A DNA stretch of 64,000 bases from a virus (Duplodnaviria > Caudoviricetes). Of the stretch, positions 10,222-64,000 are shown piece after piece. The notes beneath the pieces are model-generated. The model ran no database searches, was not told where the DNA came from, and was given only the letters and a program-made list of their open reading frames with translations. The DNA is taken from IMG/VR virus record IMGVR_UViG_3300033076_000375, positions 122,223 to 186,222 of that record, one strand, 5' to 3'. Position 1 is the first letter of the stretch. Every line of letters starts with the position of its first letter. The position numbers and the translations under genes were made by a program.

Positions 10222-10228
10222 CTAAATA
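10222..10228 (+). promoter_or_regulatory. Late promoter motif CTAAATA
   Basis: GACTAAATA followed by AGGA SD and ATG at 10245. Confidence 0.6.
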
Positions 10229-10244
10229 TATTATAGGATAAAAC

Positions 10245-10829
10245 ATGGCAATTACTTTCCCTAGCAACCCAACGACAAATCAAACGTACACTTACGGCGG
10301 TAAAGTCTGGACATTCAACGGCTCACGTTGGTTGAATACAGGGGCAAGTTATACATCAAGTACACCGGTGGTACCGATAACAGTATCAGATACTGAACCC
10401 GGATCAACCCAAGAAGGTTCTATATGGGTTGATAGCACGACCGGTACGTTGAGTGTTTACGTGGGAGGGTCATGGGTTTTAGCAAGCGCAGGAGTGTTGA
10501 ATGTAGCGGCGAACACATTGCCAGGAAACTCGATTGTAGACGGATCAATTACAGCAACGCAACTAGCATCTGGAGCCGCAGTACCAACACAAACAGGACA
10601 ATCTGGTAAGTTTTTGACTACTGATGGTTCAACTGCGTCTTGGGCAACAGTTGATGCACTACCGTCTCAATCAACAAATTCAGGTAAATACTTAACAACT
10701 GATGGAACTAACGCATCTTGGACAACAGTTACGACTACTCCTGGTGCAAATACTATTACTACAGACATGTTGAATACAACCGCTAAATCACGAATGGCAG
10801 GGTTCAACTTAATTTTCGGGGCACAATAA
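10245..10829 (+). CDS. Short fibre stem protein
   Basis: N-terminal MAITFPSNPTTNQTYTY motif, two SGK(F/Y)LTTDGxxASW repeats, C-terminal FNLIFGA. Confidence 0.7.
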   Translation: MAITFPSNPTTNQTYTYGGKVWTFNGSRWLNTGASYTSSTPVVPITVSDTEPGSTQEGSIWVDSTTGTLSVYVGGSWVLASAGVLNVAANTLPGNSIVDGSITATQLASGAAVPTQTGQSGKFLTTDGSTASWATVDALPSQSTNSGKYLTTDGTNASWTTVTTTPGANTITTDMLNTTAKSRMAGFNLIFGAQ

Positions 10830-17547: not shown

Positions 17548-17554
17548 CTAAATA
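17548..17554 (+). promoter_or_regulatory. Late promoter motif CTAAATA
   Basis: GACTAAATA followed by AAGG and ATG at 17573. Confidence 0.6.
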
Positions 17555-17572
17555 TTAAATAAGGTTCAATAC

Positions 17573-33130: not shown

Positions 33131-33412
33131 ATGGCAAAGTTAAGTCGTAAGGGAGATACAAATCAAGTAGGTGGCGCCATCATGCGCGGCGCCGGAACTG
33201 TATTCGCCAATGGCATCCCTGTCGGCTTACATGTCAGTCAAATTACTCCACACGCACCGTGGGGTAGACCACATCCCCCGCATCATGCGGCAACAACTAC
33301 ACAAGGATCACCGACAGTATTTGCTGAAGGTGTTCCTGTTCTTAGAGTAGGATCAGGCAACAGTTGCGGGCATAGTATCGCACAAGGTTCACCTGACGTT
33401 AATGTACCATGA
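33131..33412 (+). CDS. PAAR-motif tail spike tip protein (gp5.4-like)
   Basis: RKGD, TVFANGIPV, His-rich loop, GSPTVFAEGVPVLRVG, CGH, GSPDV. Confidence 0.88.
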   Translation: MAKLSRKGDTNQVGGAIMRGAGTVFANGIPVGLHVSQITPHAPWGRPHPPHHAATTTQGSPTVFAEGVPVLRVGSGNSCGHSIAQGSPDVNVP

Positions 33413-35421
33413 GTTATAACGGTAAGCTAACCCCATTAACCACAAATGTATTAAGTTCATTCTTAATCAATTCCGGTTTACAAATCAATGCAAATGCAGT
33501 TAAGTATATGGGTTCTTGCTCGGCACCAACAAGTTATACACCGGGCACAATCGTAACTGATACATATCTAAGCCCCTTAGTAACTGCAATTAATTTAGCG
33601 TACACAAAGCTACAAGCAGGTCAACTAAGTAGCGAATTATACACGAACATCACTAGTATCGGTAGTCAGTCAATACCTGCTCTTGGTAATAGCAAGCCTT
33701 CAACATACACTCGCACGTATACAGGTGTTACTGCACGTAACGGCTTTTTGGGATTAATTCCATATCAAGCGTATAATGAGTTTTATCTTACTTCAGGTAA
33801 GTATTCTGATTTCTTAAAGACATTTACGGCTTGCAATTCCACAGCACAACTTCACAATAGTTCAATCACTGCGATGACACTTGCTAAGAGTTTCTTGAGT
33901 GGAACATATAGTAATATGAATGACCTGATAACTAGTGATATCACTGGAGTCAGTTTATCGACACTGTATTGGGGACAGGATTTAATAGCATCTGGTAAAG
34001 CTATCGATTTAGCAACTATTGATAAATTCGGTGACCCTGTAAACTTGCTTAGAACTATCAACAAATACAGAGCAACATCAACTGGTCTCAATGTTGCATT
34101 ACTTGCTGTTGGAATGACTAGTACTGAGTTAGAGCAAATCTATAATGGCAAAGAACCAACTGTTGAACAACAACGTTTATTATACGGTTGTTTCAGTGTA
34201 GTAATGGGAGAAGATTTGCAAGATATCTTAACACCATTGAACATTCAAACAAAAGATTTAGAAACACTTGCTGATTTGTTGAACCCAAAGAAACTGTTCC
34301 CTAACAGTTTTCAAACATTGACATATCCTGAATACAACATCACAAGCAAACCAACTAATAGCAAAACTTATCATTTATTGTATAAGAACGGTGAAGTAGA
34401 TATAAAGTCAGGCTCCATCGGTATTAGATTAACTAACATTTTACCTTCTGACATCGCTTATGCGTGTGGTGCATTAAGTATGGCTATGATGCAAATCAAA
34501 AACATCAAGTCGATGAATATTGAGAAGTTCAGTCAAGTAGTTGCTAATTTAGAACCCGTATCTGACTTGGGTGTAAATGGATCAGCGGTCCCTACTGATA
34601 CTGCTTCGGTTGCGTCTGCATTGCCATTAATGGCAAAAGGTTCAAACAGTGACGGCACATATAACATGTGCGACTTCTTTGGATCAATGACTGACCTTCA
34701 TTATGACTGGGCTTCTTTACAAGCTCAAATCAAATCACTTCAAACAGTTACATTAAGAACTGCATATGAAAACATGGTTACTATGCTAAATCAATCTAGC
34801 AATGATAACTATTTGTTGTTACAAAATTACATTACAGCAGCCAATACTGAAATAAGTAGAATATACAACGCACAAACAGCAGTAGCCAATAAACTGAATA
34901 CACTTTATAATACATTCGGAACATACTTACAAAAAGAACAAGACGCTAGAGACTTAGCGTTAACATCAGATTTAACAACAATAACATCAACCACAACTGA
35001 TGTTACATTGTTTGTATCAAATATTGGGTCCCTAAGCGCCCAAACAGAACTAAAAGGACCTGCAAGGGTACTTGAAAATATTGCAAACACTAATACCATA
35101 GGAGGAAAAAGTTTAAATGCATCAATGCGTGAGGCAAGAAACGCAATGAAATTAAGTTTGACCGGAGCTGTTCAAGATAATGAAATATCTAGCAATGCTC
35201 TTGTCACTGCACCCGTTACAGGATCTATGACTAGCTTAGGAGTCCCGATAGTAACAGGTGCCGCAGTTGTTCCGGGCAGTTTAGCGGGAAGTCCTGAAAC
35301 AACTCTTATTCCGCCAAATCTCAGTATTTTTAACACACCTTCTAATACTAAGGCGGTCTTGAAACCTAGCGAAGCAATCGAATCGGTAACGATTTGCAAC
35401 TGCGATTGCTGGGACAAGTAA
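33409..35421 (+). CDS. Hypothetical, probably virion/baseplate-associated protein
   Basis: 670 aa, coupled to PAAR by ATGA; C-terminal CNCDCW. Confidence 0.6.
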   Translation: MSYNGKLTPLTTNVLSSFLINSGLQINANAVKYMGSCSAPTSYTPGTIVTDTYLSPLVTAINLAYTKLQAGQLSSELYTNITSIGSQSIPALGNSKPSTYTRTYTGVTARNGFLGLIPYQAYNEFYLTSGKYSDFLKTFTACNSTAQLHNSSITAMTLAKSFLSGTYSNMNDLITSDITGVSLSTLYWGQDLIASGKAIDLATIDKFGDPVNLLRTINKYRATSTGLNVALLAVGMTSTELEQIYNGKEPTVEQQRLLYGCFSVVMGEDLQDILTPLNIQTKDLETLADLLNPKKLFPNSFQTLTYPEYNITSKPTNSKTYHLLYKNGEVDIKSGSIGIRLTNILPSDIAYACGALSMAMMQIKNIKSMNIEKFSQVVANLEPVSDLGVNGSAVPTDTASVASALPLMAKGSNSDGTYNMCDFFGSMTDLHYDWASLQAQIKSLQTVTLRTAYENMVTMLNQSSNDNYLLLQNYITAANTEISRIYNAQTAVANKLNTLYNTFGTYLQKEQDARDLALTSDLTTITSTTTDVTLFVSNIGSLSAQTELKGPARVLENIANTNTIGGKSLNASMREARNAMKLSLTGAVQDNEISSNALVTAPVTGSMTSLGVPIVTGAAVVPGSLAGSPETTLIPPNLSIFNTPSNTKAVLKPSEAIESVTICNCDCWDK

Positions 35422-53301: not shown

Positions 53302-54021
53302 ATGGAATCCAAATATTTTACTGGAATCCCGTTCGATTCTGAATGGGCAAACATCGCTATTAGTGTAAGCGGTGGAGCCGATTCGGCGTTGCTTGCATAC
53401 ATGGTTTGTAGTAAAGCAACGACACAAACTATTCACATAGTAAATCATATTAGAATGTGGAAGACTAGACCATGGCAAGAGTATGATGCTAGAATTGTAT
53501 ATGAGTACTTAGTCGAAAAGTTCCCCCACATTAAGTTTGAACTTCATAAAAACTTTATTGCCCCCGACATTGAGTATGGTAATATAGGACCTATGTTGAC
53601 TGATGAGTATGGTAAGAAAGTGTCAGGTGATAATATACAACAAAGGTCGTTCGGGGAATACATCTGTCATAAGTATAAAATAGACGCATATTTCAACGGT
53701 GTCACTAGAAACCCATCAATTAAAATAGAAAATAGCATGAGTGAGCGTGACATTGAACCCTGTGATGAAAACGAACACAAAAGATATATGATACACATGG
53801 GTGTTGTTGTTAGTCACCCTTTCAGATTTGTTGACAAAAGCTGGATAGTAAAACAGTACAAAGAATTAGATATCATAGATTTATTTAACTTGACCCGAAG
53901 TTGTGAGGGTGAGTTTAATAATATCGATTACAAGACATATAAACCTTTTCAGCCAGTACCCACGTGCGGAGAATGTTTCTGGTGTAAAGAAAGAAGTTGG
54001 GCAATAGATGAATCAAAGTAA
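53302..54021 (+). CDS. QueC-like PP-loop ATP pyrophosphatase
   Basis: ISVSGGADS, TRSC...CGECFWCKER Zn motif. Confidence 0.75.
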   Translation: MESKYFTGIPFDSEWANIAISVSGGADSALLAYMVCSKATTQTIHIVNHIRMWKTRPWQEYDARIVYEYLVEKFPHIKFELHKNFIAPDIEYGNIGPMLTDEYGKKVSGDNIQQRSFGEYICHKYKIDAYFNGVTRNPSIKIENSMSERDIEPCDENEHKRYMIHMGVVVSHPFRFVDKSWIVKQYKELDIIDLFNLTRSCEGEFNNIDYKTYKPFQPVPTCGECFWCKERSWAIDESK

Positions 54022-55258
54022 AACATTTTGTATGCACCCGTTTACAGGGTTAGCAACGAGAGAAGATGGCGCAATTAAAGCCTGCTGTCGTAGCTTACCT
54101 GTAGGATACATTCAAGACAATACATTAGAAGAAATTTGGAATAACGATACAATGCAACGTATTCGTAGACAAGTTTTGAATAACGAAAGACCAAAAGAGT
54201 GCGAGCCATGCTTTACTCTAGAGGATCAAGGGGTAGAAAGTTTACGCCAACGTCACATTAATGGGGTTATCCCCGAAGCAAGAATTAACTTGTATCCGAA
54301 CACAGAGTTTAAAGAGATACTCCCATTTACATTTCCAACAATGGAAATCAAGTTAAACAATCTATGTAACCTGAAGTGTAGAATGTGCCATCCAATGGAC
54401 TCTACCAGTTGGAATGATTGGAATCAAGTTGAAGAATTCTACAAGAAAGAAGATAACTTTTTAGTTGAAAAGATTCATAGTCTCAACTTAGTTAACAAAC
54501 CATACTTAGGACCGTTCGATGATAGTGATAACTGGTGGAATAGTTTTGAGAAACTATTGCCCCACTTCCGTCGTGTAGAATTTGCAGGTGGCGAACCCCT
54601 AATGGATCCGCAACACTTTAAGATACTTGAAATGTTAAAGCCATATGGTGATAAGATTCAATTAAAATATGCTACTAATTTAAGTATGTTAGGTAAAGGT
54701 AATAGAACAGTACACGAATACTGGCCTCACTTTAAATCAATCGCTGTCAATGTGTCTATTGATGGGTATGGTCCCAGCTATGAATATGTTAGAGGAAATG
54801 CTAACTGGTCAGACTTGTTGAGAAACATCAAAGAGATTCAACAGTTCCCGAACATTGATAGAATAGTAGGGGCAGTTGCTGTTCAGGTGTCAAATGCTTA
54901 TCAACTTCCTAGAATGATTGAATTCTTTTTAGATGAATTGGGTATTGTTTTCTACACGAACATGGTAAACTATCCTCAGTGCTTGAGCATTCAAGTATTA
55001 CCTGAAGAACTAAAGAGAGAAATCACAGAAAAATTGTTAGTAACTAAGTTTAAGATTCATGGGTATTCTCTAGTCATCAAAAACCCTATTTTGCAAAAGA
55101 TTACAGAAACTCAAATCGACAACATCATCAATTACATGAATCACAAAGATACACATGAAGAATTGTGGAATGATACTATTAATTTCAATATGAAGTTAGA
55201 CAGTACCCGCAATCAAAATTTCTTAGAAGTTAACCCAGAGTTTAAACCATATGTATAA
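54008..55258 (+). CDS. Twitch/SPASM-domain radical SAM protein
   Basis: N-terminal FCMHPF...ACC...CEPC; CNLKCRMC; AGGEP. Confidence 0.88.
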   Translation: MNQSKTFCMHPFTGLATREDGAIKACCRSLPVGYIQDNTLEEIWNNDTMQRIRRQVLNNERPKECEPCFTLEDQGVESLRQRHINGVIPEARINLYPNTEFKEILPFTFPTMEIKLNNLCNLKCRMCHPMDSTSWNDWNQVEEFYKKEDNFLVEKIHSLNLVNKPYLGPFDDSDNWWNSFEKLLPHFRRVEFAGGEPLMDPQHFKILEMLKPYGDKIQLKYATNLSMLGKGNRTVHEYWPHFKSIAVNVSIDGYGPSYEYVRGNANWSDLLRNIKEIQQFPNIDRIVGAVAVQVSNAYQLPRMIEFFLDELGIVFYTNMVNYPQCLSIQVLPEELKREITEKLLVTKFKIHGYSLVIKNPILQKITETQIDNIINYMNHKDTHEELWNDTINFNMKLDSTRNQNFLEVNPEFKPYV

Positions 55259-56144
55259 AGTTGCGAGTAGATGGAAACATTCTGACTTTATTAAAGTAGA
55301 GTGGAACATTGGGAAACGTTGTAACTATGATTGTAGTTACTGCCCTAGCTATATCCACGATAATTCTAGCCCGCATACTGACTATTTTATCCTACAAAAC
55401 ACAGTAGACAAACTAGCATCATTGGGTAAGCCTGTTCGTATTAGTTTAACAGGCGGTGAGCCATGTGTTCATCCTGACATTGAACGATTGATTACTTACA
55501 TTAAAAGCAAAAACATGTGGCTCTCAGTTACAACTAACGGTACACGAAAGCCATTATGGTATACTCGTCAATTATTAGACCAGTATGTGTTTTCGTTACA
55601 TTTTGAGCATGAATGGGCTGACGTATTGTACACTATTAAAACTGTACATGAGCAGATTCACGGGTCACATATATTAGTTAACGTTATGTGCCATCAGGAC
55701 AAGATGAAAGAAGTCCGTGATGCAGTGATTATATTGTCTAACAACAATATCAAATACAATCTACGTAGAGTCAGATGGACAGAGGGTGACCATGATTTGT
55801 TTGATGATATGAAGTATGACCAGAAAGACTTAGACTATATCTTACAGCATGATTCTACTGTAGGGGCAAATACTATCTTGTTCTATAAGGACAAAGAAGA
55901 AATGTATCATGCCAACGATGTGATTAAACTTCACAAGAATCAATACAAGGGCTGGAAGTGCAATGCTGGCTTAGAGAGTTTGATGATTAACTGGGATGGT
56001 GAAGTACATCGTGCTACTTGCAGGGTAGGTGGAAGTCTAGGGAATATCTACAATGGAACGTTCGATGTTCCAACTGAACCTGTTATCTGCGACAGAAACT
56101 ATTGCACATGTGCCGCAGATATCCCTATTACAAAAGTTCTTTGA
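55251..56144 (+). CDS. Radical SAM protein with C-terminal SPASM-like Cys cluster
   Basis: CNYDCSYC, TGGEP, CNAG...ATC...ICDRNYCTC. Confidence 0.88.
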   Translation: MYKVASRWKHSDFIKVEWNIGKRCNYDCSYCPSYIHDNSSPHTDYFILQNTVDKLASLGKPVRISLTGGEPCVHPDIERLITYIKSKNMWLSVTTNGTRKPLWYTRQLLDQYVFSLHFEHEWADVLYTIKTVHEQIHGSHILVNVMCHQDKMKEVRDAVIILSNNNIKYNLRRVRWTEGDHDLFDDMKYDQKDLDYILQHDSTVGANTILFYKDKEEMYHANDVIKLHKNQYKGWKCNAGLESLMINWDGEVHRATCRVGGSLGNIYNGTFDVPTEPVICDRNYCTCAADIPITKVL

Positions 56145-57510
56145 GTTCTGGGAAGATTGATTTACTATCAGTATTTCTCACGTTGTCTAACGTATTGATA
56201 TATTCTTTGAACTCTGGTAGTAAATGACTATGGTCTTCTGACTCAACAAAGTCTAGAATCGCACGCCAACGTTTCCATCCGTACGGGTTGTCATTCCAAA
56301 AGTCAATATCTTGTCTATAATTATCATATAGCCAATTCTTAAACTCAATGAACTTTGTGCGTATACGTTCTTTATGTTCTTTGGGTAGAATTCTAGCACT
56401 CAAAAATGTCGGGATATAAAGCAAGTGCATGTTAAATATGCCACCACCTGCTTGATAGTTTGCTAGACTATGCTTGTTTATCTTTTTAAAATTCTGACTG
56501 AGAACGAACTTAGCAAACTCAGGTAAGTGTTCAATGTTTAGAACTTGTACAGCTACTTGTATGCTAGGTACGATATTATCAGGTGTGTTATCTAACTTAT
56601 GAAGAACATCAAGCACTTCGCTCCAAACAGTTGGATATCTGATATAGTAGTTTTTATCTTCTAACGAGTCAATGCTTAGTGCAAAGTTGACCTTCTTAAA
56701 ACTCTTCCACAATTCTAGTATTTCATCAGTCAACAACAAACCGTTAGAGTTATATCGCAATGAAATATCTTTTGCGTAACCTTGTTTGATGATTTCTTTG
56801 AGATACAGTTTGTGTTCTTTAATCATCAATGGTTCACCACCTGCAAAGTAAATTTTCTTTACGTGTGGAATCTGTTTGTTGATATCATCCCAAAATTGAT
56901 TTTTCTCGTACCATTGATTGTTGAACGAATTGTTGTCCCATGCAATTTGTTTAAGAATGATTGGACTTTTAACAGTGTTGACTACTTTATCATAGTCTTG
57001 CACCCAGCGACTTGAATCATGTGGACTGCACATGCTGCATTTTAAATTGCAAGTATGACCTAATCTCAAATCAAGATATTGAATCTTTTCAGGAACACTA
57101 CCATCTTCATTCGTTTCTTTGATTAGTTGTTTGAAGTCTAACCCTTCTTCTGACCAATCATACATTTCCCATAAGCGTTTAGACACAACTTGGTTGTTTT
57201 CTTCCTCGAAACACTTGCTACAACTCTTTGGAACTTCCCCGTTGAGCATGGCTTTTCTAATAGAGCGCATGTGTTCATTGTTCCATGCTTCTAATGGAGT
57301 CTCTTTACTAAAGTTAACTATGTTCCCTGAATCGTTTTTAATTAGTCCAACTTCATGGTCATCACCTGCTCCACTGGCATTCGCCCCGCAGCATAAGCGC
57401 ATATCTCCATTGGGTCTAGTTGCAAGATGAATCCAGGGTAAAACACAAAATGTTTTACTCCCAGTTCGTTCTTCAATCTGTTTAATATACCCGGGAATCT
57501 TTTCACTCAT
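56128..57510 (-). CDS. Twitch/SPASM-domain radical SAM protein
   Basis: FCVLPW...LCC...CSKC; CNLKCSMC; AGGEP. Confidence 0.88.
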   Translation of the reverse strand: MSEKIPGYIKQIEERTGSKTFCVLPWIHLATRPNGDMRLCCGANASGAGDDHEVGLIKNDSGNIVNFSKETPLEAWNNEHMRSIRKAMLNGEVPKSCSKCFEEENNQVVSKRLWEMYDWSEEGLDFKQLIKETNEDGSVPEKIQYLDLRLGHTCNLKCSMCSPHDSSRWVQDYDKVVNTVKSPIILKQIAWDNNSFNNQWYEKNQFWDDINKQIPHVKKIYFAGGEPLMIKEHKLYLKEIIKQGYAKDISLRYNSNGLLLTDEILELWKSFKKVNFALSIDSLEDKNYYIRYPTVWSEVLDVLHKLDNTPDNIVPSIQVAVQVLNIEHLPEFAKFVLSQNFKKINKHSLANYQAGGGIFNMHLLYIPTFLSARILPKEHKERIRTKFIEFKNWLYDNYRQDIDFWNDNPYGWKRWRAILDFVESEDHSHLLPEFKEYINTLDNVRNTDSKSIFPELKELL

Positions 57511-58586
57511 AGTTTGTCTTTAGTTGTTGTTTGGTCGATTGGTTTAGATAGATTAGTGTTTGTTCCGCATATTCTAGCGCACATTATCATTTTGTTTTCT
57601 CCCCACATGTCAGTCCACATTGTCTGATATGGTTCACTATCAATTATTTCTTTAATAGGATGAAGAAGGGTAGAGATACCATCATAACCGCCGAATCTAT
57701 CTATCATTTTGTTATGCTGTTCTAGAATTTCTTTTCTAATCGGTAGTAATGAAGCCCACTCATCTTGTGATTGATATGGGATAGTTCCTAACCAACAGCA
57801 CCCGTATAGATGCCCTTGCGCATCAATAAAGACTTCTTTTCTTTCTTGTACTACGCACTTGATTTCTGCGTTACGTACAACAGATTTATAGTTGTCGATA
57901 ACCTTTTTGTCAATGAACTTCATTGTGCTATACTGACTTGGTTCTAGGTAATAACTTGTCTCTCTGTTCTTGTTATATACAGGGAACTTATTATCAAGTA
58001 GAAAGCGAGTACTATCTTTCATAGTGAAGTTTTTAAATCCCATTTCTTGTGCGATTCTTTTAGCTTCTTCTACTTGGTGTTCATTGTGCTTAAAGCGAAT
58101 GTATACCCACTCTGCGTTGCCACCGTTGTCAATGAATGACTTGGCATTCTCTAAAATCTTTTCGTAAGATGTACCGATTCTGTAAATCGAATGAGTATCA
58201 GATAACCCGTCTATTGCAAATATAACTACTAGATTCTTCAAGTTGGCTTTTGCAAGGTCTGCCCACCATCGAGTAGAACGTAAGCTACCATTAGTGTGAA
58301 GATGGACATGAATATCTGGGTTATGCTCTTTTGCGTACACTAGCATCTCTTTCAATTCATTAGCCATGAGAGGATCGCCTAATCCACCACATAAACTAAT
58401 ACTCTCAATTTGCTTGAGTACGTCAATAGAAACTATAGTCTGGAATTCTTCTAATGTCCATGTTTTAGCATTGACTAATGGGTTCTCAACTCCACCGTGT
58501 ATGTTTCTTGAGCACATGGGGCAGCTAGCCTGACAGTTACTAGAAATCTCTAAGTGAAGGTGTTTTAGCTCACTATATTTAAACAT
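57507..58586 (-). CDS. Radical SAM protein with C-terminal twitch-like domain
   Basis: CQASCPMC, CGGLGDP, YGCCW, CARICG. Confidence 0.85.
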   Translation of the reverse strand: MFKYSELKHLHLEISSNCQASCPMCSRNIHGGVENPLVNAKTWTLEEFQTIVSIDVLKQIESISLCGGLGDPLMANELKEMLVYAKEHNPDIHVHLHTNGSLRSTRWWADLAKANLKNLVVIFAIDGLSDTHSIYRIGTSYEKILENAKSFIDNGGNAEWVYIRFKHNEHQVEEAKRIAQEMGFKNFTMKDSTRFLLDNKFPVYNKNRETSYYLEPSQYSTMKFIDKKVIDNYKSVVRNAEIKCVVQERKEVFIDAQGHLYGCCWLGTIPYQSQDEWASLLPIRKEILEQHNKMIDRFGGYDGISTLLHPIKEIIDSEPYQTMWTDMWGENKMIMCARICGTNTNLSKPIDQTTTKDKL

Positions 58587-60123
58587 TAGGTCTCCAGTTT
58601 AGTTTCTTGTTGATGTAATCTTGTACGATTTCTTTGTACTTGTCGTCTGCGGTATTTACTTCTGAAATATGAACGTCATACACATCACTGAAGTTGTCGG
58701 TTTGGTATAATGGGAACAGTCTGTCCGATAAGAATGGGTTACCGCCCACTCTTCCTTTGTAACCGTTTTCTTTGTCGTAAAATTCTTTGACGAGATACTC
58801 TGCTTTGTACCAATCTAAAGTATTATGTTTCCATATCACAACATTGTTTCGAGTGCTACCTACTCCCCCACCTCTAATGGATTTGAATACTACATCACCC
58901 TTGTCATCTTTTACGACTTCATATCCCGGATGTTCACGAGCGTCTAACTTTTGCAGTCCATTTGCCAATAATTCTTTTGTAAACTTACTCTGATTTGTTA
59001 GTGTTTCGTCATAGTCACTGACTTCTAATATCCAAGCACTCGCACTTTGTCTTGTCCAATGTGTGTTCAACCAGTTCATAGATTCGTACCATGATTCAAC
59101 AGTCTCACCAGGAATGCCGCAAATCATTTGTATGTTTGCTCTATACCTTCTAGGTGCATGAATGTCAGTGTATCTTTCAAACTCTAACAACCCCTCTTTG
59201 AGTTTATCAGGGTCCATGCCTTTACGTACAAGTTTACCGGCTTCTCTATTGAACGTTTCGATTCCCATTGAATGACCCAAGAAGCCTAGTTTGATATAGT
59301 CATCCCAATGTTCTTTGTGTTTAACAACTAAGTCACCACGAGCAAATCCGCAGAACCAAGTATCAAGACCCAACTCATCAACTACTTCGGCATACTTGCG
59401 AATCTTTTCTGGTCTGTCATTGAATGTCTCATCCATGAAGCGCCAGTTCTTGATTCCCCATTTGTCGTAGCCTGTTTGTAGTTGCTTCTTGAATTCTTCT
59501 TTGCTTACGCTAACATCCTTTGATTGCCCTAGTAACGGAAAATTACAGTAGCTACAACTAAACATACATCCACGTGCCGTTTCAATCTGTGGACATTCAT
59601 ATGGACTCATAAAGTCTCTGGATTCATAATCAATCAGATATGAACTTAACGGGGCAGATGGATAGTGATAGATTCCTCTGATTACTTTCTTCATTCCAAA
59701 GAAAGCAGGGTCAGTCTTTAGTGGTTCACCCAATGTACCAATCAAATGTTTACACAACGATAGTATAGCATTCTCTCCATAACTATCAACCCAATAATCA
59801 ATGTGTTCTGCTTTTGTGACTAGGGCATTGTTGCCACCTACAACTCTTGCGATGTTGGGGTACTCATCTTTTAACCAACTAATGAAGTCATTGAGATAAG
59901 GGCTCCATGGATTTAAGAATGCTGTACCGAAGCAAAACATAACTGTCTTGTTGGTTACCCTTGAACGAACCAATTCTTGTAGTTCTTCTAATTTCCAAAA
60001 TGATGTGTAGTCAATTACTTCCGCATCCCAACCTTCTGTGCGCAAGAATGTAGCAACACGATGGGACCATAGTGCTCGTTCCCATCGTTTACCTGATAAT
60101 GAAAAGAATAGTACGTGGTTCAT
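58579..60123 (-). CDS. B12-binding-domain-like radical SAM protein (paralog of 39408)
   Basis: ARGCMFSCSYC, MDETFND, GIET, ICGIPGET. Confidence 0.8.
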   Translation of the reverse strand: MNHVLFFSLSGKRWERALWSHRVATFLRTEGWDAEVIDYTSFWKLEELQELVRSRVTNKTVMFCFGTAFLNPWSPYLNDFISWLKDEYPNIARVVGGNNALVTKAEHIDYWVDSYGENAILSLCKHLIGTLGEPLKTDPAFFGMKKVIRGIYHYPSAPLSSYLIDYESRDFMSPYECPQIETARGCMFSCSYCNFPLLGQSKDVSVSKEEFKKQLQTGYDKWGIKNWRFMDETFNDRPEKIRKYAEVVDELGLDTWFCGFARGDLVVKHKEHWDDYIKLGFLGHSMGIETFNREAGKLVRKGMDPDKLKEGLLEFERYTDIHAPRRYRANIQMICGIPGETVESWYESMNWLNTHWTRQSASAWILEVSDYDETLTNQSKFTKELLANGLQKLDAREHPGYEVVKDDKGDVVFKSIRGGGVGSTRNNVVIWKHNTLDWYKAEYLVKEFYDKENGYKGRVGGNPFLSDRLFPLYQTDNFSDVYDVHISEVNTADDKYKEIVQDYINKKLNWRPNV

Positions 60124-60728
60124 TTGTATCCTATAATCATAAAGCGTTTGTACTTGGGTAAGTCTAACTCTCCCTTGTACAATACTTTAGACAACTTGGC
60201 TTGAACCACAAAGTCATCTAAACTTTGTGCGATGCGCACATGTTCTGGAATATCAAAGTTATTTGATTGCAACACAATCAATTGGTCATCAAACATATTA
60301 GGCAACCACTTATCGTATTGTTCCTGTGTAATGTGTTCAAAACTTGTGTTGATTACAATGTTTGACACTGGAAAACGATTAGCCATATCGCCAGTCTCTG
60401 CCCTAAATCTACCTTCAGTGTGTTCGATTCTGTTCATTTCTTCTGCAACGTGTTGACACAATGGATCAATGTCTACTGAAACTATATTCTGAATCGGAAG
60501 TTTACTTTGAAACAACATGCTTGCTAAGACACCAACCCAACCACCGTGAATTTCTATAGTCACTGGGTCTTTGTTGACTGCTGGGTGAACAACAAACTCT
60601 AGCATGTCAATTAGCCACTCTTTTGATTTGATTTGTCCTTGCCAGAAGGCATCTAAAGTACGCATAGGATTGTTACTGATGCGAACGGCATTCATCCAAT
60701 GATGTAAATGTTTTGTATCTATTTGCAT
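60120..60728 (-). CDS. Class I SAM methyltransferase-like protein
   Basis: IHGGWVGVLA, VSVDID, VINTSFEH. Confidence 0.65.
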   Translation of the reverse strand: MQIDTKHLHHWMNAVRISNNPMRTLDAFWQGQIKSKEWLIDMLEFVVHPAVNKDPVTIEIHGGWVGVLASMLFQSKLPIQNIVSVDIDPLCQHVAEEMNRIEHTEGRFRAETGDMANRFPVSNIVINTSFEHITQEQYDKWLPNMFDDQLIVLQSNNFDIPEHVRIAQSLDDFVVQAKLSKVLYKGELDLPKYKRFMIIGYK

Positions 60729-61687
60729 TTTGGTATCTTACTATCTGCTGAACTAACGCATGTGGGTGTTGAGCAAACTCTAGGCTCATCGAAAAGTTTG
60801 AACCCACCGTCTAATGTTCCTAATCTTTGGTCATGGCAGCTATAGCTACGTTTGACTTCATTCTCTCTAATTATAACACTTTGATAGCCACTATTGCAAG
60901 TCCAGCCAGTGAATTTATTAAACCCGAAACTGTTGAAACGTTCTGCTTGGTCAATGTGCCATTCTTTGTTATCACTATCAATCAGTTTAACTTGTAGAAG
61001 TTCTTGGTCATGGAACTGTTGATGAAACCCATTACGCATAGCATCGATTTGGTCATCAGTATACCCACTCACAACTTTACTTGCATTTGGGTCACTCTGT
61101 GGCTTTAGTGTTACATTGATGCCTGCGTTGTGCATACGCTCACATCTAGCGTACAATTCGTCAAACTGTTCAGGAACCATAACTTGGTTGACTGTGACAA
61201 ACACATTATGCTCACCCAAGTACTTGCATTTTTCAATGAACTCATCTTCTTTTGCAAACTCTGCATGATAACTGGCAGTGATTGAACGTCTACGTGCCGA
61301 GCGTGTCATCATCAAGTATCTGTCCCACCATTTCAATCCTGGGCTCAAGTTAGTAGTCATGTGAATAGAATCGTTGGACACTTCGTACAACAGTGCCAAC
61401 AACTCTTTGTATGCTGTGGGTTCACCACCACTGAATGACCAATGAAACAAACTAAAGCCATTGTTGTTTGCTTGGTCTTTGATTGATTCGATTGTTTTTA
61501 GGTAAGTGTGAAGTGATTGATAGTCTGGCTTATCTGAATGAGCATACGGCCAGCAGTATGAGCAACTATAGTTACAAAATCTACCCAAGATCCAGCTGAC
61601 AGCAAACAACTTGCGGTCTAACATTGTTTCTTGTCCGAATTTTACTATCTTGTGAAATGGAATTTCTGAGAAGTTTGTGTTATTCAT
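60719..61687 (-). CDS. Radical SAM protein (paralog of 55251)
   Basis: CNYSCSYC, SGGEP, CNSG...SC...VCSTPTC. Confidence 0.88.
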   Translation of the reverse strand: MNNTNFSEIPFHKIVKFGQETMLDRKLFAVSWILGRFCNYSCSYCWPYAHSDKPDYQSLHTYLKTIESIKDQANNNGFSLFHWSFSGGEPTAYKELLALLYEVSNDSIHMTTNLSPGLKWWDRYLMMTRSARRRSITASYHAEFAKEDEFIEKCKYLGEHNVFVTVNQVMVPEQFDELYARCERMHNAGINVTLKPQSDPNASKVVSGYTDDQIDAMRNGFHQQFHDQELLQVKLIDSDNKEWHIDQAERFNSFGFNKFTGWTCNSGYQSVIIRENEVKRSYSCHDQRLGTLDGGFKLFDEPRVCSTPTCVSSADSKIPKCK

Positions 61688-62912
61688 TGATACTACTAAT
61701 TTCGAAAATAGATTCGATTGGTAGTTGGGTACCTATGATTGTTGAAAATCTGTGTAGCATTTTTACGCCAGCATCACTGTAACCTGTCTCAGTTTGATTA
61801 CGCCAAACTCTAGTTTTGGGTTGGTCGTAGAATGGGACGTTGAACTCAAAATCAAATCTATCTACTATATATTGATTTGAATCGACTACCCAAAAATAAT
61901 CAGTAGTGGATATTTTAGCTGCATCCAAGTAAGAATCAGCTTTGATAGCTTTTGGTTCTTTCTCTAGTAACCTGTTGAAATTCTTATCGTTGGTGCCGAT
62001 GAAGAACACTTCGGGCGCTTCATTGTACTGATACTTGATAAAGTTTTGCTGTCCTCGTACGGTACATTGTATCTTCTCTCTGAATTCTTTGCTTTCTTCT
62101 ATGCCCAGAATATCTGTGATTCTATTATCTACCTTATTGAGTAAACTTGTTAGTCTGTTTACTTCTGTGAACAATGAGGATAAATTAAACGTTGTTTCGT
62201 TGAAGACTGCCTTCAAGTGGTCGCTATCTTTGATTTTGGTAAAGTCACCGTTGTGAACCATTGACATGTAGTAGCCCATACGAGCACCATAGATTGACCA
62301 CAACCCATTTGTTACATCACCACCGACATGCATCCAGCGCCATAGTCTCTCATAGTTCTTCCAGTTTATCTCAGATGAGTTGGTGACGATTTGATTGTTT
62401 TCCATGCACAACTTTGTACCTTCACGGAACCCAGCTTTGAACGCTTGTAAAGGACTAGCTGTAATGTCAGTGATTGACCCTACAAAGTTAAGCTCCAAAT
62501 AGTTCTTAAAGTCAAAGTCTACACTAGCCCCATCGGGTGCATTTTCATGGGTTCGCATCGACAAAATCTTCTCGACAGGCCAGACTTTGATGCTACCATT
62601 CCCGTAGCAGTTTCCGTTGACCGGGTTAAACGCACTATAACTTAAAACAGTAGTGCTCAAATCAACCGAATCAAGTAAGTTAAAAGTCTTAGTGAAAAAT
62701 TCAGGCTTGACAAAATTATCCCCATCGACTATAATCACGTTAGAAGTTTTAGAAAGTTTAGCACACTCTTTGTGTGCGGTGTCTGAACCCTTTACTCCAT
62801 GCACTCTTTGAGCAGTGGGGCAAAGAGACAAAAGGTGTTGATAGTTTTCTTCACAGTTCGGTTCATCGTAACTAAGAAAAATTACTGAATAGTCATTTGG
62901 GTTAAATATCAT
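61680..62912 (-). CDS. Glycosyltransferase-like protein (GT-A/DxD type)
   Basis: IFLSYDEPN, VHGVKGSDTAHK, IVDGDN; a degenerate second copy near the C-terminus (FWVVDS). Confidence 0.55.
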   Translation of the reverse strand: MIFNPNDYSVIFLSYDEPNCEENYQHLLSLCPTAQRVHGVKGSDTAHKECAKLSKTSNVIIVDGDNFVKPEFFTKTFNLLDSVDLSTTVLSYSAFNPVNGNCYGNGSIKVWPVEKILSMRTHENAPDGASVDFDFKNYLELNFVGSITDITASPLQAFKAGFREGTKLCMENNQIVTNSSEINWKNYERLWRWMHVGGDVTNGLWSIYGARMGYYMSMVHNGDFTKIKDSDHLKAVFNETTFNLSSLFTEVNRLTSLLNKVDNRITDILGIEESKEFREKIQCTVRGQQNFIKYQYNEAPEVFFIGTNDKNFNRLLEKEPKAIKADSYLDAAKISTTDYFWVVDSNQYIVDRFDFEFNVPFYDQPKTRVWRNQTETGYSDAGVKMLHRFSTIIGTQLPIESIFEISSINE

Positions 62913-62917
62913 AAAGA

Positions 62918-62924
62918 TATTTAG
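62918..62924 (-). promoter_or_regulatory. Late promoter motif CTAAATA (minus strand)
   Basis: TATTTAG 5 nt upstream of the minus-strand ATG at 62912. Confidence 0.55.
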
Positions 62925-62933
62925 CAACAAAGG

Positions 62934-62962
62934 TTGACAGTAAATGAGAAACCTGCTATACT
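62934..62962 (+). promoter_or_regulatory. Sigma70-type promoter P1
   Basis: TTGACA-17 nt-TATACT with extended -10 TG. Confidence 0.85.
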
Positions 62963-63032
62963 ATCTTCAACGTTGAGAAATCAACAAGAAACAGAGGTTG
63001 TGTGTTTCGGGCAACAAAGTTTGAAAAAGTTG

Positions 63033-63061
63033 TTGACAACTAATCAAATAGGTGCTACAAT
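63033..63061 (+). promoter_or_regulatory. Sigma70-type promoter P2
   Basis: TTGACA-17 nt-TACAAT with extended -10 TG. Confidence 0.85.
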
Positions 63062-63123
63062 ACATACATCTTAAACAAATTGAAAGAAAAAACGCCGTAA
63101 AAAGCACAATTTTTTAACCAGGA

Positions 63124-63130
63124 CTAAATA
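63124..63130 (+). promoter_or_regulatory. Late promoter motif CTAAATA
   Basis: GACTAAATA 7 nt upstream of the ATG at 63138. Confidence 0.55.
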
Positions 63131-63137
63131 GATTACT

Positions 63138-63305
63138 ATGAAAAATTTTAACTGTCATTCGCTAACGAACATAAGCATGTGGTCAACATTACCACAAGCT
63201 CAAGTGTTGGCCTTTGCAGGGAAAGCACAACCTAGTATTCGCGGCTCAGAGTATAATGATCCAAGAACACCAGGGAGTTTCATAGAAGGAGACGGTTACG
63301 CATAA
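63138..63305 (+). CDS. Putative attenuator leader peptide (55 aa)
   Basis: MKNFNCHSLTNISMWSTLPQAQVLAFAGKAQPSIRGSEYNDPRTPGSFIEGDGYA; 3' end overlaps the antiterminator arm. Confidence 0.6.
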   Translation: MKNFNCHSLTNISMWSTLPQAQVLAFAGKAQPSIRGSEYNDPRTPGSFIEGDGYA

Positions 63306-63341
63306 AGTGTGATGTCTTAAAAGAATCTAAGAAACCCCTGG
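63270..63341 (+). promoter_or_regulatory. Putative antiterminator hairpin
   Basis: CCAGGG-A-GTTTC-A-TAGA (63270-63286) pairs with TCTA-A-GAAAC-CCCTGG (63326-63341), 15 bp; the inner hairpin 63289-63318 has the TAA in its loop. Confidence 0.65.
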
Positions 63342-63371
63342 GAAACTAAAAAGTCTCAGGGGTTTTGTTTT
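63331..63371 (+). terminator. Intrinsic terminator
   Basis: GAAACCCCTGGGA...TCTCAGGGGTTTT stem followed by TTTTGTTTT. Confidence 0.8.
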
Positions 63372-63392
63372 GTAACAAAGGAGTTTGAAAGA

Positions 63393-63542
63393 TTGAACGA
63401 AACATTAGAAACGAAAACTTCCGACAAACGAGATTGGTATAAAGACAATCAGTTATCGGATAAAGAATTTAAACAAATGATTGAGGAAAAACTCAATCGT
63501 GTGAAAATTTATAGCAGGATTCATCCTGTTCGTAAGAAGTAA
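63393..63542 (+). CDS. Small charged hypothetical protein (49 aa)
   Basis: AAGGAG SD at 63378-63383, TTG start; MNETLETKTSDKRDWYKDNQLSDKEFKQMIEEKLNRVKIYSRIHPVRKK. Confidence 0.5.
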   Translation: MNETLETKTSDKRDWYKDNQLSDKEFKQMIEEKLNRVKIYSRIHPVRKK

Positions 63543-63758
63543 CACAAGTGTTAGAATGTAGTAACGTGGACTACGCAACACACTATAATAAGTTGCAAAC
63601 GGGCGGACTGTAGGATGAAGCTACTTTTGAGTAGTGAAAAATTACAGGCTAGGGTATAGCTCTAGCATAGCATCACAAGATGCTATTCACTAGTAATACT
63701 AGGATTAACATTACACTTCCCTTCTGACGGGGACTGCCTAGATTACTACTGAATAGCA
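63543..63758 (+). ncRNA. Candidate structured non-coding RNA(s) upstream of the tRNA array
   Basis: Chain of abutting hairpins plus a 21-bp interrupted stem at 63681-63758; no listed ORF. Confidence 0.4.
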
Positions 63759-63765
63759 AATTTGT

Positions 63766-63841
63766 TGGGGTATAGCCTAGCGGCCTAAGGCAACGGTCTT
63801 TGAAATCGTCATCATCAGTTCGAATCTGATTACCCCTGCCA
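63766..63841 (+). tRNA. trnQ: tRNA-Gln (TTG)
   Basis: Cloverleaf; anticodon arm ACGGT-CTTTGAA-ATCGT; T arm ATCAG-TTCGAAT-CTGAT; encoded CCA. Confidence 0.93.
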
Positions 63842-63850
63842 ACAATTTAT

Positions 63851-63926
63851 ACTCTGTTCGTCTATCGGTTTAGGACAGTGGCCTTTCAAGTCGCAAAGAC
63901 GGGTTCGATTCCCGTACAGAGTACCA
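63851..63926 (+). tRNA. trnE: tRNA-Glu (TTC)
   Basis: ACTCTGT/ACAGAGT acceptor stem; GTGGC-CTTTCAA-GTCGC; ACGGG-TTCGATT-CCCGT; CCA. Confidence 0.93.
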
Positions 63927-63933
63927 ATTATAT

Positions 63934-64000
63934 GCGTGGTTAGTTTAACGGTAAAATCAAACGTTGCCAACGTTTAGTCAAGGGTTCGACTCCCTTACCC
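63934..64000 (+). tRNA. trnG: tRNA-Gly (GCC), truncated by the window end
   Basis: AAACG-TTGCCAA-CGTTT anticodon arm; AAGGG-TTCGACT-CCCTT T arm. Confidence 0.88.

Follow-up and report, generated by a model that had tools for sequence, protein, structure and literature searches.

Arrays of tRNA genes are common in phages, and the control of their expression is almost unknown. The DNA analysed here, a stretch of 64,000 nt referred to as the window, belongs to a phage of the T4 superfamily and runs to the end of its contig, so that the tRNA array found there is cut inside its third gene. In front of this array lies a short open reading frame (ORF1) followed by an intrinsic terminator, which raises the question of whether, and by what signal, transcription into the tRNA genes is adjusted. 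The sequence-only reading had answered with a ribosome-coupled attenuator, and the promoters, the ORF, the terminator and the alternative pairing that it described are all present in the window, where the locus is laid out as follows:

62934-62962: sigma70-like promoter, TTGACA-17-TATACT with TG (promoter scan)
63033-63061, + strand: early-type sigma70 promoter P1, TTGACA-17-TACAAT with TG (promoter scan)
63116-63130, + strand: 5' block AACCAGGACTAAATA, almost invariant in the comparison of relatives
63136-63143, + strand: start-codon region CUAUGAAA, candidate segment 1 by its complementarity to the ORF1 end
63138-63305, + strand: leader ORF1, 55 codons, from the ATG at 63138 to the TAA at 63303-63305
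63270-63286, + strand: segment 2, the antiterminator 5' strand, codons 45-50 of ORF1, CCAGGG-A-GUUUC-A-UAGA
63288-63317, + strand: inner hairpin of the antiterminator, whose apical loop contains the stop codon UAA (63303-63305)
63326-63343, + strand: segment 3, shared between the antiterminator 3' strand (63326-63341) and the terminator 5' arm (63332-63343)
63354-63371, + strand: segment 4, the terminator 3' arm UCUCAGGGGUUU and the U tract UUUUGUUUU
63393-63542, + strand: ORF2, 49 aa, TTG start, Shine-Dalgarno sequence AAGGAG at 63378-63383
63766-64000, + strand: start of the tRNA array, with tRNA-Gln(UUG) at 63766-63841, tRNA-Glu(UUC) at 63851-63926 and a third tRNA from 63934

From the sequence comparisons set out below, we propose, with a probability of roughly 0.6, that this region is a leader-peptide (ribosome-mediated) transcription attenuator in front of a phage tRNA operon. 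Leader-peptide attenuation is a textbook mechanism. Here, the leader ORF1 would be part of the message made from the early sigma70 promoter and, probably, of one made from a late promoter abutting the ATG. A lead ribosome that moves smoothly to the stop codon would come to lie on or inside segment 2, leading to pairing of segments 3 and 4 and to termination by RNA polymerase. With a ribosome stalled earlier, segments 2 and 3 would pair, no terminator would form and the polymerase would enter ORF2 and the tRNA array. That the switch depends on the ribosome, which way it responds and what it serves physiologically are inferred here, and one might speculate that it is linked to anticodon nucleases or translation stress.

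The terminator in the window consists of the arms AAACCCCUGGGA (63332-63343) and UCUCAGGGGUUU (63354-63365), which enclose a 10-nt loop, and of a U tract at 63363-63371; the hairpin has an energy of -17.4 kcal/mol and was missed by a program terminator scan because the scan allows loops of up to 8 nt. The alternative pairing joins 63270-63286 to 63326-63341 by 15 bp, interrupted by a single bulge and a single mismatch, and is made up of CCAGGG/CCCUGG (63270-75 with 63336-41), GUUUC/GAAAC (63277-81 with 63331-35) and UAGA/UCUA (63283-86 with 63326-29). RNAfold and the pairing itself confirm that this helix closes an inner hairpin with the stop codon in its apical loop, as had been noticed from the sequence. 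For 63138-63375, the minimum free energy (MFE) fold is the long hairpin, the centroid is the terminator and the z-score against shuffles is -4.49; the two states are nearly isoenergetic, differing by 0.5 to 2.9 kcal/mol. An Rfam cmscan of 62800-64000 (E <= 1) returned three tRNAs and a chance miRNA match, and no leader, T-box or riboswitch family.

Relatives of this module were retrieved by protein-guided and pattern-guided searches of IMG/VR contigs, which gave 100 unique versions in uncultivated T4-like jumbo phages. These relatives share ancestry, so that sequence counts overstate the number of independent events. The first 79 modules were fetched by a pattern that fixes the terminator stem, which makes the conservation of their stem partly circular; a second retrieval used the 5' block, is independent of the hairpin and is the set on which the comparison of the shared arm is based. 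Outside these contigs, the module had no DNA match in 50,697 phage records, where only the tRNAs matched. The order is constant: a promoter at about -105 from the ORF1 ATG (the equivalent of P1, kept in nearly all relatives), the 5' block, ORF1, its stop codon, 18-29 nt and the hairpin (spacing from 76 hairpin-retrieved modules). The terminator is a G+C-rich hairpin of -13 to -24 kcal/mol, followed in most modules by UUUUUGYUUU and by only three to four U in 10 of the first 79 modules and in several retrieved by the 5' block. The hairpin loop was also considered as a specific binding site, an idea that was dropped since variant loops were found.

Is the alternative helix kept in these relatives as well? 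When the 76 hairpin-retrieved modules were folded without the terminator 3' arm, the 5' arm paired back to the end of ORF1 in all of them, with antiterminator energies of -16 to -33 kcal/mol compared with -17 to -21 kcal/mol for the terminator. The same back-pairing around the stop codon is available in all 100 unique versions. The leader ORF ends in the alternative helix throughout, a feature whose conservation the sequence-only reading had proposed to check: in terms of geometry alone, the stop codon always lies within the antiterminator, its place being the apical loop in group A and helix P2 in group B. Each subfamily keeps the pairing with different sequences, encoding the endings PGSFIE, GPGTR, ARGTE and EPGG. 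Paired cells amounted to 88.5% and 93.4%, compared with 32-61% when the partners were slid, and the covariation score exceeded that of 500 out of 500 shuffles; only 3 and 2 pairs show double-sided compensatory changes inside subfamilies. When the last 14 codons were recoded synonymously, the structure became weaker (mean z = -3.06, with 49 of 64 sequences below -2), and the terminator arm was paired in 98% of natural but 31% of recoded sequences. Codon choice favours the antiterminator.

The modules retrieved independently of the hairpin carry arm variants that come with matching partners: GAAGCCCC accompanies GGGGCUUC (L141 and L153) and GAAACCCC accompanies GGGGUUUC (L059), and in L161 a change in the arm is matched by a compensating change in the 3' arm, while a U-G pair accommodates it in the antiterminator. 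Native 2:3 duplexes were better than cross-class duplexes in 15 of 16 classes and native 3:4 duplexes in 16 of 16. RNAalifold on plain MAFFT alignments recovered the helices only in part because indels misalign the apical region, and per-sequence folds, projected structures, recoding and cross-pairing were therefore used instead. The leader ORF, the terminator and the antiterminator are conserved across the 100 relatives, and the two folds are mutually exclusive there as in the window, since the terminator 5' arm is shared with the antiterminator.

If a ribosome on ORF1 sets the switch, what would make it stall? ORF1 is open in 100 of 100 unique modules, spans 43-59 codons and keeps a fixed distance between its ATG and the 5' block. 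It has no Shine-Dalgarno sequence at a working distance, the nearest candidate being an AGGA 14 nt from the ATG. No single amino acid is enriched, and the tandem regulatory codons expected of attenuators are not seen in ORF1. The peptide instead contains everything: in the window, all 20 amino acids have been reached by codon 41, ahead of the antiterminator strand, and among 88 distinct peptides of 43-59 aa, 81 contain all 20 and the remaining 7 contain 19. The set is complete ahead of segment 2 in 79 of the 81 (about 31% under permutation); counts are given here since a product of the permutation P values would include failing clusters and is no valid test. Control windows of 41, 45 and 55 aa from proteins of this phage contain all 20 amino acids in 0.4%, 0.9% and 2.7% of cases, and complete peptides numbered 60 of 64, compared with 17.8 +/- 3.1 after column shuffling. 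In the same 64-peptide set, Cys, His and Trp are each present as a single copy in 60-61 peptides, and where one of them is missing at its usual column it is present elsewhere in the same peptide. For Leu and for Ser, both codon boxes occur in 64/64 peptides, and for Arg in 56/64 (null expectations 40, 57 and 38).

This composition fits a stalling sensor. As every amino acid occurs ahead of segment 2, read-through could rise whenever any one charged tRNA runs short, which would amount to feedback control of tRNA supply. We put forward tentatively, and with less assurance than the attenuator itself, that the leader is a pan-amino-acid sensor, which presents codons for all 20 amino acids, and both codon boxes of Leu, Ser and mostly Arg, upstream of the antiterminator strand, and in which any such shortage stalls the ribosome and opens the way into a phage tRNA set for all 20 amino acids. 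The peptide could also have a function of its own, given its conserved motifs KH.G.W and P[ST]IRG; ORF1 had no match in Pfam, PHROGs or the ESM Atlas and no similarity to T4 proteins.

One such function might lie with the neighbouring genes. Directly upstream, the opposite strand encodes five radical SAM proteins and a conserved protein of 416 aa, and radical SAM or 416-aa homologues are found upstream in 51 of 80 loci, so that ORF1, with its small product and single conserved Cys, His and Trp, might encode the precursor of a radical-SAM-modified ribosomal peptide made beside this divergent cluster. The co-location is not constant: the neighbours are missing from at least 10 loci for which 3-14 kb of upstream sequence is available, whereas the tRNA array is nearly always there. 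In addition, the C-terminal part of ORF1 varies by indels and tracks the RNA pairing rather than peptide conservation, and the conserved residues shift position, all of which makes a modified peptide very improbable. The only isolate with a relative of the 416-aa protein is Ralstonia phage RsoM2USA, which has neither tRNAs nor the module at that place.

On the downstream side, the sequence-only reading had described an attenuator adjoining and gating a tRNA array. The adjacency is borne out by a same-strand array that begins within 1.6 kb of the module in 75 of 77 loci; L015, the near-identical L014 and L151 have no tRNA in the downstream sequence present. Arrays with about 10 kb or more of downstream sequence comprise 26-42 tRNAs, which serve 19-20 amino acids. 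In the window, the first tRNA (63766) is separated from the terminator by ORF2 and about 220 nt of non-coding DNA. ORF2 encodes a conserved small protein (SDKxDWxxNHxLTxEQ..LIxxKxxR), which stands between the terminator and the tRNAs in most relatives and matched no known family in Pfam, PHROGs or the ESM Atlas; with this gene intervening, the switch could regulate ORF2 no less than the tRNAs.

The gating had been made conditional on the tRNAs having no promoter of their own. In the window, no promoter reaches threshold just after the terminator. In 75 of 98 relatives, a near-consensus sigma70 promoter (TTGACA-17-TAGAAT/TACAAT) lies 20-48 nt after the hairpin, and the tRNA array of these phages is therefore not dependent on read-through. 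The proposed switch would modulate tRNA transcription and is not its sole gate, the second promoter providing a terminator-independent supply in most relatives.

These strong promoters after the terminator also agree with a plainer account, in which ORF1 is a small-protein gene of the usual kind, equipped with promoters and a terminator of its own, the tRNA array is self-promoted and their adjacency is inherited. The long hairpin would then serve the stability of the mRNA 3' end, the separation of the message from the tRNA precursor by RNase III or slow termination of translation. An imperfect hairpin of about 25 bp, as found here, is of a type that RNase III cuts, the peptide has conserved motifs, and synteny can be inherited since all the relatives are of one phage lineage. 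What this account leaves unexplained is that a hairpin uses the terminator 5' arm in every subfamily, that each arm variant forms its best duplexes, in either helix, with its own partners, that the two states have nearly equal energies, and that the rare residues relocate, are never lost and complete the full set before segment 2. We consider it unlikely, albeit the strongest of the competing explanations.

The attenuator reading, as first formulated, also held that RNA without a loaded ribosome would be read through, and here the folds point the other way. The start-codon region CUAUGAAA (63136-63143) is complementary to UUUCAUAG at 63278-63285, at the end of ORF1. In both subfamilies, this region is complementary to the ORF1 end or to the spacer after the stop codon, with a mean duplex z of -2.6 (below -2 in 42 of 64), and the partner sequences differ in L076, L084 and L093. 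Full-length MFE folds of the window, L002, L010 and L029 use this pairing and form the terminator, which makes read-through without a loaded ribosome doubtful; RNA left untranslated may terminate. The 5' block, for its part, has a candidate pairing with the terminator arm, which is seen in 28 of the 64 long MFE folds and is only 5 bp long; this block also carries the promoter-like recurring motif described below. In sum, the original proposal is supported in part: its ORF, terminator and antiterminator are conserved, sole gating of the tRNAs is not supported and read-through in the absence of a ribosome is doubtful.

The same complementarity, with its varying partners and its use in the full-length folds, could be taken as a translational autoregulator, in which pairing of the start codon closes the ORF1 message after one round and any downstream effect is incidental. 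However, the partners lie far apart and form a short helix (8 bp in group A), and an autoregulator gives no reason for an arm shared with the terminator. Moreover, trp-type attenuators include 1:2 pairing in the same switch, so that start-codon pairing does not compete with attenuation. We regard autoregulation as the main role of the module as improbable.

The almost invariant 5' block calls for an explanation of its own. It contains GACTAAATA, which ends only 7 nt before the ORF1 ATG. In this genome, the motif recurs ahead of tail-fibre and other large genes, at 16-21 nt from their ATG, which suggests that the 5' block holds a putative T4-type late promoter (TATAAATA-like, gp55-dependent); in a check of the region upstream of gp23, only CTAAACA was seen. 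Late in infection, the message may be leaderless, starting at the ATG from this abutting promoter. On the pan-amino-acid reading, the sensor would then be the means of matching tRNA output to translational demand, or of restoring it after loss of host tRNAs.

Alternatively, the 5' block and much of the hairpin, which are more conserved than the coding part, could belong to a small RNA, the terminated transcript of 230-300 nt acting in trans or in a dual function by binding a host or phage target. Against this, the loop and upper stem vary freely among the modules retrieved independently of the hairpin (a GAAA tetraloop and other loops), no Rfam family was matched, GACTAAATA precedes several large genes, and the full CCAGGACTAAATA string is met again elsewhere in related contigs, away from the module, which is the behaviour of a promoter. 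We give a small RNA very little credence.

As an attenuator, the module is best compared with the trp/his/phe/thr-type systems of enteric bacteria. These share a short leader ORF, which is translated there, a terminator 5' arm that alternatively pairs upstream, a stop codon placed so that the terminating ribosome masks the antiterminator strand, and perhaps also a 1:2 pairing, by which untranslated RNA would terminate. In contrast to them, the phage leader has no run of codons for a single amino acid and contains each of the 20 at least once, many of them once; it is long (43-59 codons) and has conserved motifs. Furthermore, the genes downstream are tRNAs rather than biosynthetic enzymes, the system is found in a phage, and a promoter stands right behind the terminator in most relatives.

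Long leaders are also found elsewhere. In the bmrB leader, ribosome stalling within a long ORF probably switches the terminator to the antiterminator. The bmrB-bmrCD system of Bacillus subtilis is a translation-stress-sensing leader attenuator of resistance genes (PMC4191407). The phage module resembles this type in its long leader ORF and in that the induced genes would relieve a translation problem, but the bmrB-bmrCD type answers ribosome-targeting antibiotics and controls transporters or ABC-F proteins. To our knowledge, that type has no all-20-amino-acid composition and is found neither in phages nor before tRNA genes. The pyrBI leader of E. coli, with about 44 codons, responds to the distance between RNA polymerase and the ribosome behind it at an intrinsic terminator; its ORF extends across the terminator, and termination is prevented when the ribosome keeps close. 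In contrast, the stop codon of the phage ORF1 precedes the terminator by 18-29 nt, and a ribosome located there should favour termination.

Literature searches found no leader-peptide attenuation before tRNA genes, in a phage tRNA operon or with a leader containing every amino acid, and we know of no such case either. If our reading is correct, the module would sense the supply of charged tRNAs in general and feed this back to tRNA production. It would bear on the near-complete tRNA sets of large phages and on how phages cope with depletion or cleavage of host tRNAs, and could serve as a compact, portable reporter of 'translation capacity'.

Within the T4 superfamily, we know of no leader-peptide switch described for the tRNA region of T4. 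As Broida and Abelson reportedly found in 1985, overlapping early, middle and late transcripts cover that region, and its tRNA cluster is said to start with tRNA-Gln, after a small late-expressed gene. The array in the window likewise begins with tRNA-Gln and has a small gene before it.

The window forms the final 64 kb of an IMG/VR virus record of 186,222 bp (39.8% G+C, CheckV completeness 49%), whose major capsid protein and portal are of T4 type, so that it represents a piece of a jumbo phage from the T4 superfamily. The layout put forward in the sequence-only reading, with strong promoters followed by a 55-codon ORF, a terminator and tRNA genes, is present at the contig end.

Features of the locus (window coordinates unless stated otherwise)
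1439-1463, 10222-10245 and 17548-17572; 17825 and 112266 of the full phage contig (G000:C1): GACTAAATA sites, putative late promoters
54008-55258, + strand: radical SAM gene
56128-57510, - strand: radical SAM gene
57507-58586, - strand: radical SAM gene
58579-60123, - strand: radical SAM gene
60719-61687, - strand: radical SAM gene
61680-62930, - strand: conserved 416-aa protein of no known family
62934-62962 and 63033-63061: sigma70-like promoters upstream of ORF1
63138-63305: leader ORF1, 55 codons
63332-63371: hairpin and U tract (terminator)
63393-63542: ORF2, small, with a good Shine-Dalgarno sequence
63543-63765: non-coding DNA of about 220 nt between ORF2 and tRNA-Gln
contig terminus: tRNA-Gln, tRNA-Glu and a third tRNA truncated by the contig end

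We consider it probable, at roughly 0.6, that this element is a translation-coupled attenuator that adjusts how much transcription continues into ORF2 and the tRNA array. The alternative pairing proposed earlier is real: CCAGGG-A-GUUUC-A-UAGA (63270-63286) is complementary to UCUA-A-GAAAC-CCCUGG (63326-63341), and the stop codon of ORF1 lies, as claimed, in the loop of the inner hairpin closed by this pairing. For the window, RNAfold returns the antiterminator as the MFE structure and the terminator as the centroid, and the energies of the two enforced states differ by only 0.5 kcal/mol locally and by 2.5-2.9 kcal/mol over whole transcripts. The CCAGG of a block 5' of ORF1 (63118-63122) can also pair with the CCUGG of the terminator 5' arm (63337-63341), a pairing predicted in 28 of the 64 long MFE folds that stop short of the 3' arm.

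Relatives were collected in IMG/VR by way of the divergent 416-aa neighbour, which led to syntenic loci with a recurring small ORF and hairpin. A hairpin pattern scan yielded 99 stretches, corresponding to 79 unique modules; as the pattern itself fixes the stem, a second scan was done with the 5' block, independently of the stem pattern, and contributed a further 28 unique modules, whose terminators are variants. Together, the two retrievals gave 100 unique modules with 88 unique peptides, and searches of isolate phages did not find the element in any of them. The order of promoter, 5' block, ORF, stop codon, spacer and hairpin is constant: an early-type promoter lies about 105 nt 5' of the ATG, the almost invariant 5' block AACCAGGACTAAATA ends 7-8 nt from the ATG, ORF1 has 43-59 codons, and the stop-to-hairpin spacer is 18-29 nt long in the 76 hairpin-retrieved modules. 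Of the 77 loci whose sequence extends far enough, 75 have a tRNA array on the same strand that starts at most 1.6 kb downstream, its first gene usually being tRNA-Gln(UUG) or tRNA-Arg(ACG). In loci with some 10 kb or more of sequence downstream, the arrays comprise 26-42 tRNAs that together serve 19-20 amino acids. No tRNA was found in the downstream sequence of the related loci L015, the near-identical L014, or L151. In L014 and L015, the module is located about 2.7-2.9 kb 5' of the start of the 416-aa gene, UUUCC replaces the U tract, and the hairpin is followed by a 125-aa ORF, with no tRNA in the 1.1 kb downstream.

When each of the 76 hairpin-retrieved modules was folded without the loop and 3' arm, the 5' arm paired with the ORF end in all 76 (-16 to -33 kcal/mol, versus -17 to -21 for the terminator), and 6-13 arm nucleotides were paired in second-retrieval modules of 24 distinct peptides folded likewise. 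The antiterminator partner is CCRGGG-A-GUUUCAUA in ...PGSFIEG... peptides and CCCGGGG in peptides ending ...GPGTR or ...ARGTE, in which the stop codon falls within a second helix (UAGGUAA:UUAUCUA or GGAAUAA:UUAUUY); a third subfamily, with peptides ending ...EPGG, uses other partner forms. In the projected structures, 88.5% and 93.4% of cells are paired, compared with 32-61% with the partners slid, and the covariation score exceeds that of 500/500 shuffles, double-sided changes being few (3 pairs with 18 cells and 2 pairs with 4 cells). Changing the last 14 codons synonymously, following the codon usage of this genome, weakens the structure (mean z -3.06; 49/64 below -2), the arm being paired in 98% of natural versus 31% of recoded sequences. 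Variant arms are matched as well: the arm GAAGCCCC faces the ORF end GGGGCUUC in L141 and L153, from the 5'-block-retrieved set, whereas the related L059 combines GAAACCCC with GGGGUUUC, the difference being a synonymous Gly codon. L150 pairs through CCCUGGA:UCCAGGG; in L161, the 3' arm (GGGGCU) makes up for an arm change that the antiterminator accommodates as a U-G pair. Among 16 shared-arm classes, the native antiterminator duplex beats cross-class duplexes in 15 (mean -3.2 kcal/mol) and the native terminator duplex does so in all 16 (mean -4.3 kcal/mol). These pairing, recoding, arm-variant and cross-class comparisons of sequences show that the mutually exclusive helices recognised in the window are both maintained among its relatives. 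That the element is a trans-acting RNA is unlikely, as the hairpin loop and upper stem vary.

ORF1 is open in every module and its indels are in frame, indicating a translated sequence, and the composition of its peptide is extraordinary. A full set of 20 amino acids occurs in 60 of the 64 unique peptides obtained first and in 81/88 overall, the remainder having 19; among 41-, 45- and 55-residue windows of this phage's long ORFs, 0.42%, 0.88% and 2.7% are complete, and when residues are shuffled within alignment columns, the number of complete peptides falls from the observed 60 to 17.8 ± 3.1, never exceeding 28 over 2000 shuffles. Cys, His and Trp are each single-copy in 60-61 of the 64 and none is ever absent from this set, a later peptide, L155, having no Cys. 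Since shared ancestry inflates sequence counts, the real evidence comes from relocations: Cys, His, Trp or Asp missing from the usual column is present at another position (His in the window, L004, L075, L059 and L047; Cys in L018, L023, L059 and the L033 group; Trp in L059 and L076; Asp in L064 and L098). The last of the 20 amino acids to appear does so 1-8 codons 5' of the antiterminator 5' strand in all 60 complete first-set peptides, and the set is complete before that strand in 79/81 overall, compared with about 31% upon permutation of residue order; the rule holds in 16 of the 18 clusters that lie below 60% identity. Codon diversity is somewhat raised (36.4 distinct codons versus 32.9 expected), and the peptides that draw on both codon boxes number 64/64 for Leu, 64/64 for Ser and 56/64 for Arg (null expectations 40, 57 and 38). 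The only reason known to us for such a composition is that each aminoacyl-tRNA must be used once. That the element acts as a pan-amino-acid feedback sensor is plausible, at somewhat less than even odds. If ORF1 were instead an ordinary gene with a terminator, the hairpin serving for stabilisation or RNase III, the shared arm, the matched arm variants and the peptide composition would all be left unexplained, and we regard this as improbable. The five radical SAM genes of the window would fit a neighbourhood in which ORF1 encodes a radical SAM RiPP precursor; this cluster (54008-62930, with the 416-aa gene) is divergent from the leader and has homologues upstream of the module in 51/80 related loci, but at least 10 loci lack these neighbours, in contrast to the near-constant presence of the tRNA array, making a RiPP role very improbable. 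Codons AGT ATT CGC GG (63234-63245, S-I-R-G) are conserved at the nucleotide level in all relatives, synonymous sites included, and a P[ST]IRG motif, which might serve to stall the ribosome through the nascent peptide, lies about 10 codons 5' of the antiterminator in the window and relatives.

The attenuator reading would have the element work like trp/his-type leader-peptide attenuators, although the tandem cognate codons of that family are absent. The element is also similar to attenuators of the long-leader, stall-anywhere type, bmrB-bmrCD (PMC4191407) among them. An attenuator in front of phage tRNA genes, or a leader containing all 20 amino acids, was not found described in the literature searched. 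A further difference from the family is also the most important qualification of the 'gate': the idea that the tRNA array is gated solely by read-through does not stand, because a promoter past the terminator, the feature which the sequence-only reading had named as speaking against it, is found in 75/98 relatives (TTGACA-17-TAGAAT/TACAAT, beginning 20-48 nt 3' of the hairpin). This promoter is missing from the window, from L001, which is its closest relative, and from a few others; in these, ORF2 directly follows the U tract, and the scan found no sigma70-like site at threshold ahead of the tRNAs. ORF2, a conserved ORF of about 50 aa, separates the terminator from the tRNAs in most loci and carries the motif SDKxDWxxNHxLTxEQ..LIxxKxxR, with no family match in Pfam, PHROGs or Atlas. 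The U run after the hairpin is only 3-4 long in 10 of the 79 first modules and in several 5'-block-retrieved ones.

In this genome, GACTAAATA is located 16-21 nt 5' of the ATG of large genes, those for tail fibres included, gp23 having only CTAAACA upstream. GACTAAATA resembles a T4-type late promoter, and it is putatively the late promoter consensus of this phage. In all modules, 7-8 nt separate the end of this motif from the ATG of ORF1, and ORF1 has no Shine-Dalgarno sequence at a working distance. Should the motif act as a late promoter, late RNAs would begin at this ATG or right beside it and hence be leaderless. Late-type motifs occur between hairpin and first tRNA in only 4 of roughly 64 relatives scanned, so the attenuator may matter most for late transcription. 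In group A loci (stop codon in the apical loop), the start-codon region CUAUGAAA is complementary to the ORF end UUUCAUAG, part of the antiterminator 5' strand; in group B (stop codon in the second helix), it is complementary to the sequence around and just past the stop (UAUGAUG..ACUUGU : ACAAGU..CAUCAUA), and L076, L084 and L093 have different partner sequences. The start-region duplex, which would add a fourth segment to the switch, has a mean z of -2.6, with 42/64 below -2. This pairing and the terminator occur together in the full-length MFE folds of the window, L002, L010 and L029, the same logic as in trp attenuators, in which untranslated RNA adopts the 1:2 and 3:4 pairings. If it does form in spite of being short and long-range, the start-region pairing would argue against the earlier proposal that RNA on which no ribosome has loaded gives read-through.

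The non-coding stretch 63543-63765 has no Rfam family match, contains a perfect TATAAT at 63584-63589 that lacks a good -35 partner, and is about 73% conserved with L002 and L003 from roughly 63638 on. Outside the window, ARAGORN predicts a tRNA with the amber-reading anticodon CUA, labelled tRNA-Pyl (G000:C1 31742-31818, - strand), and a permuted tmRNA-like gene with the tag ANDEIFALAA (33316-33744, - strand).
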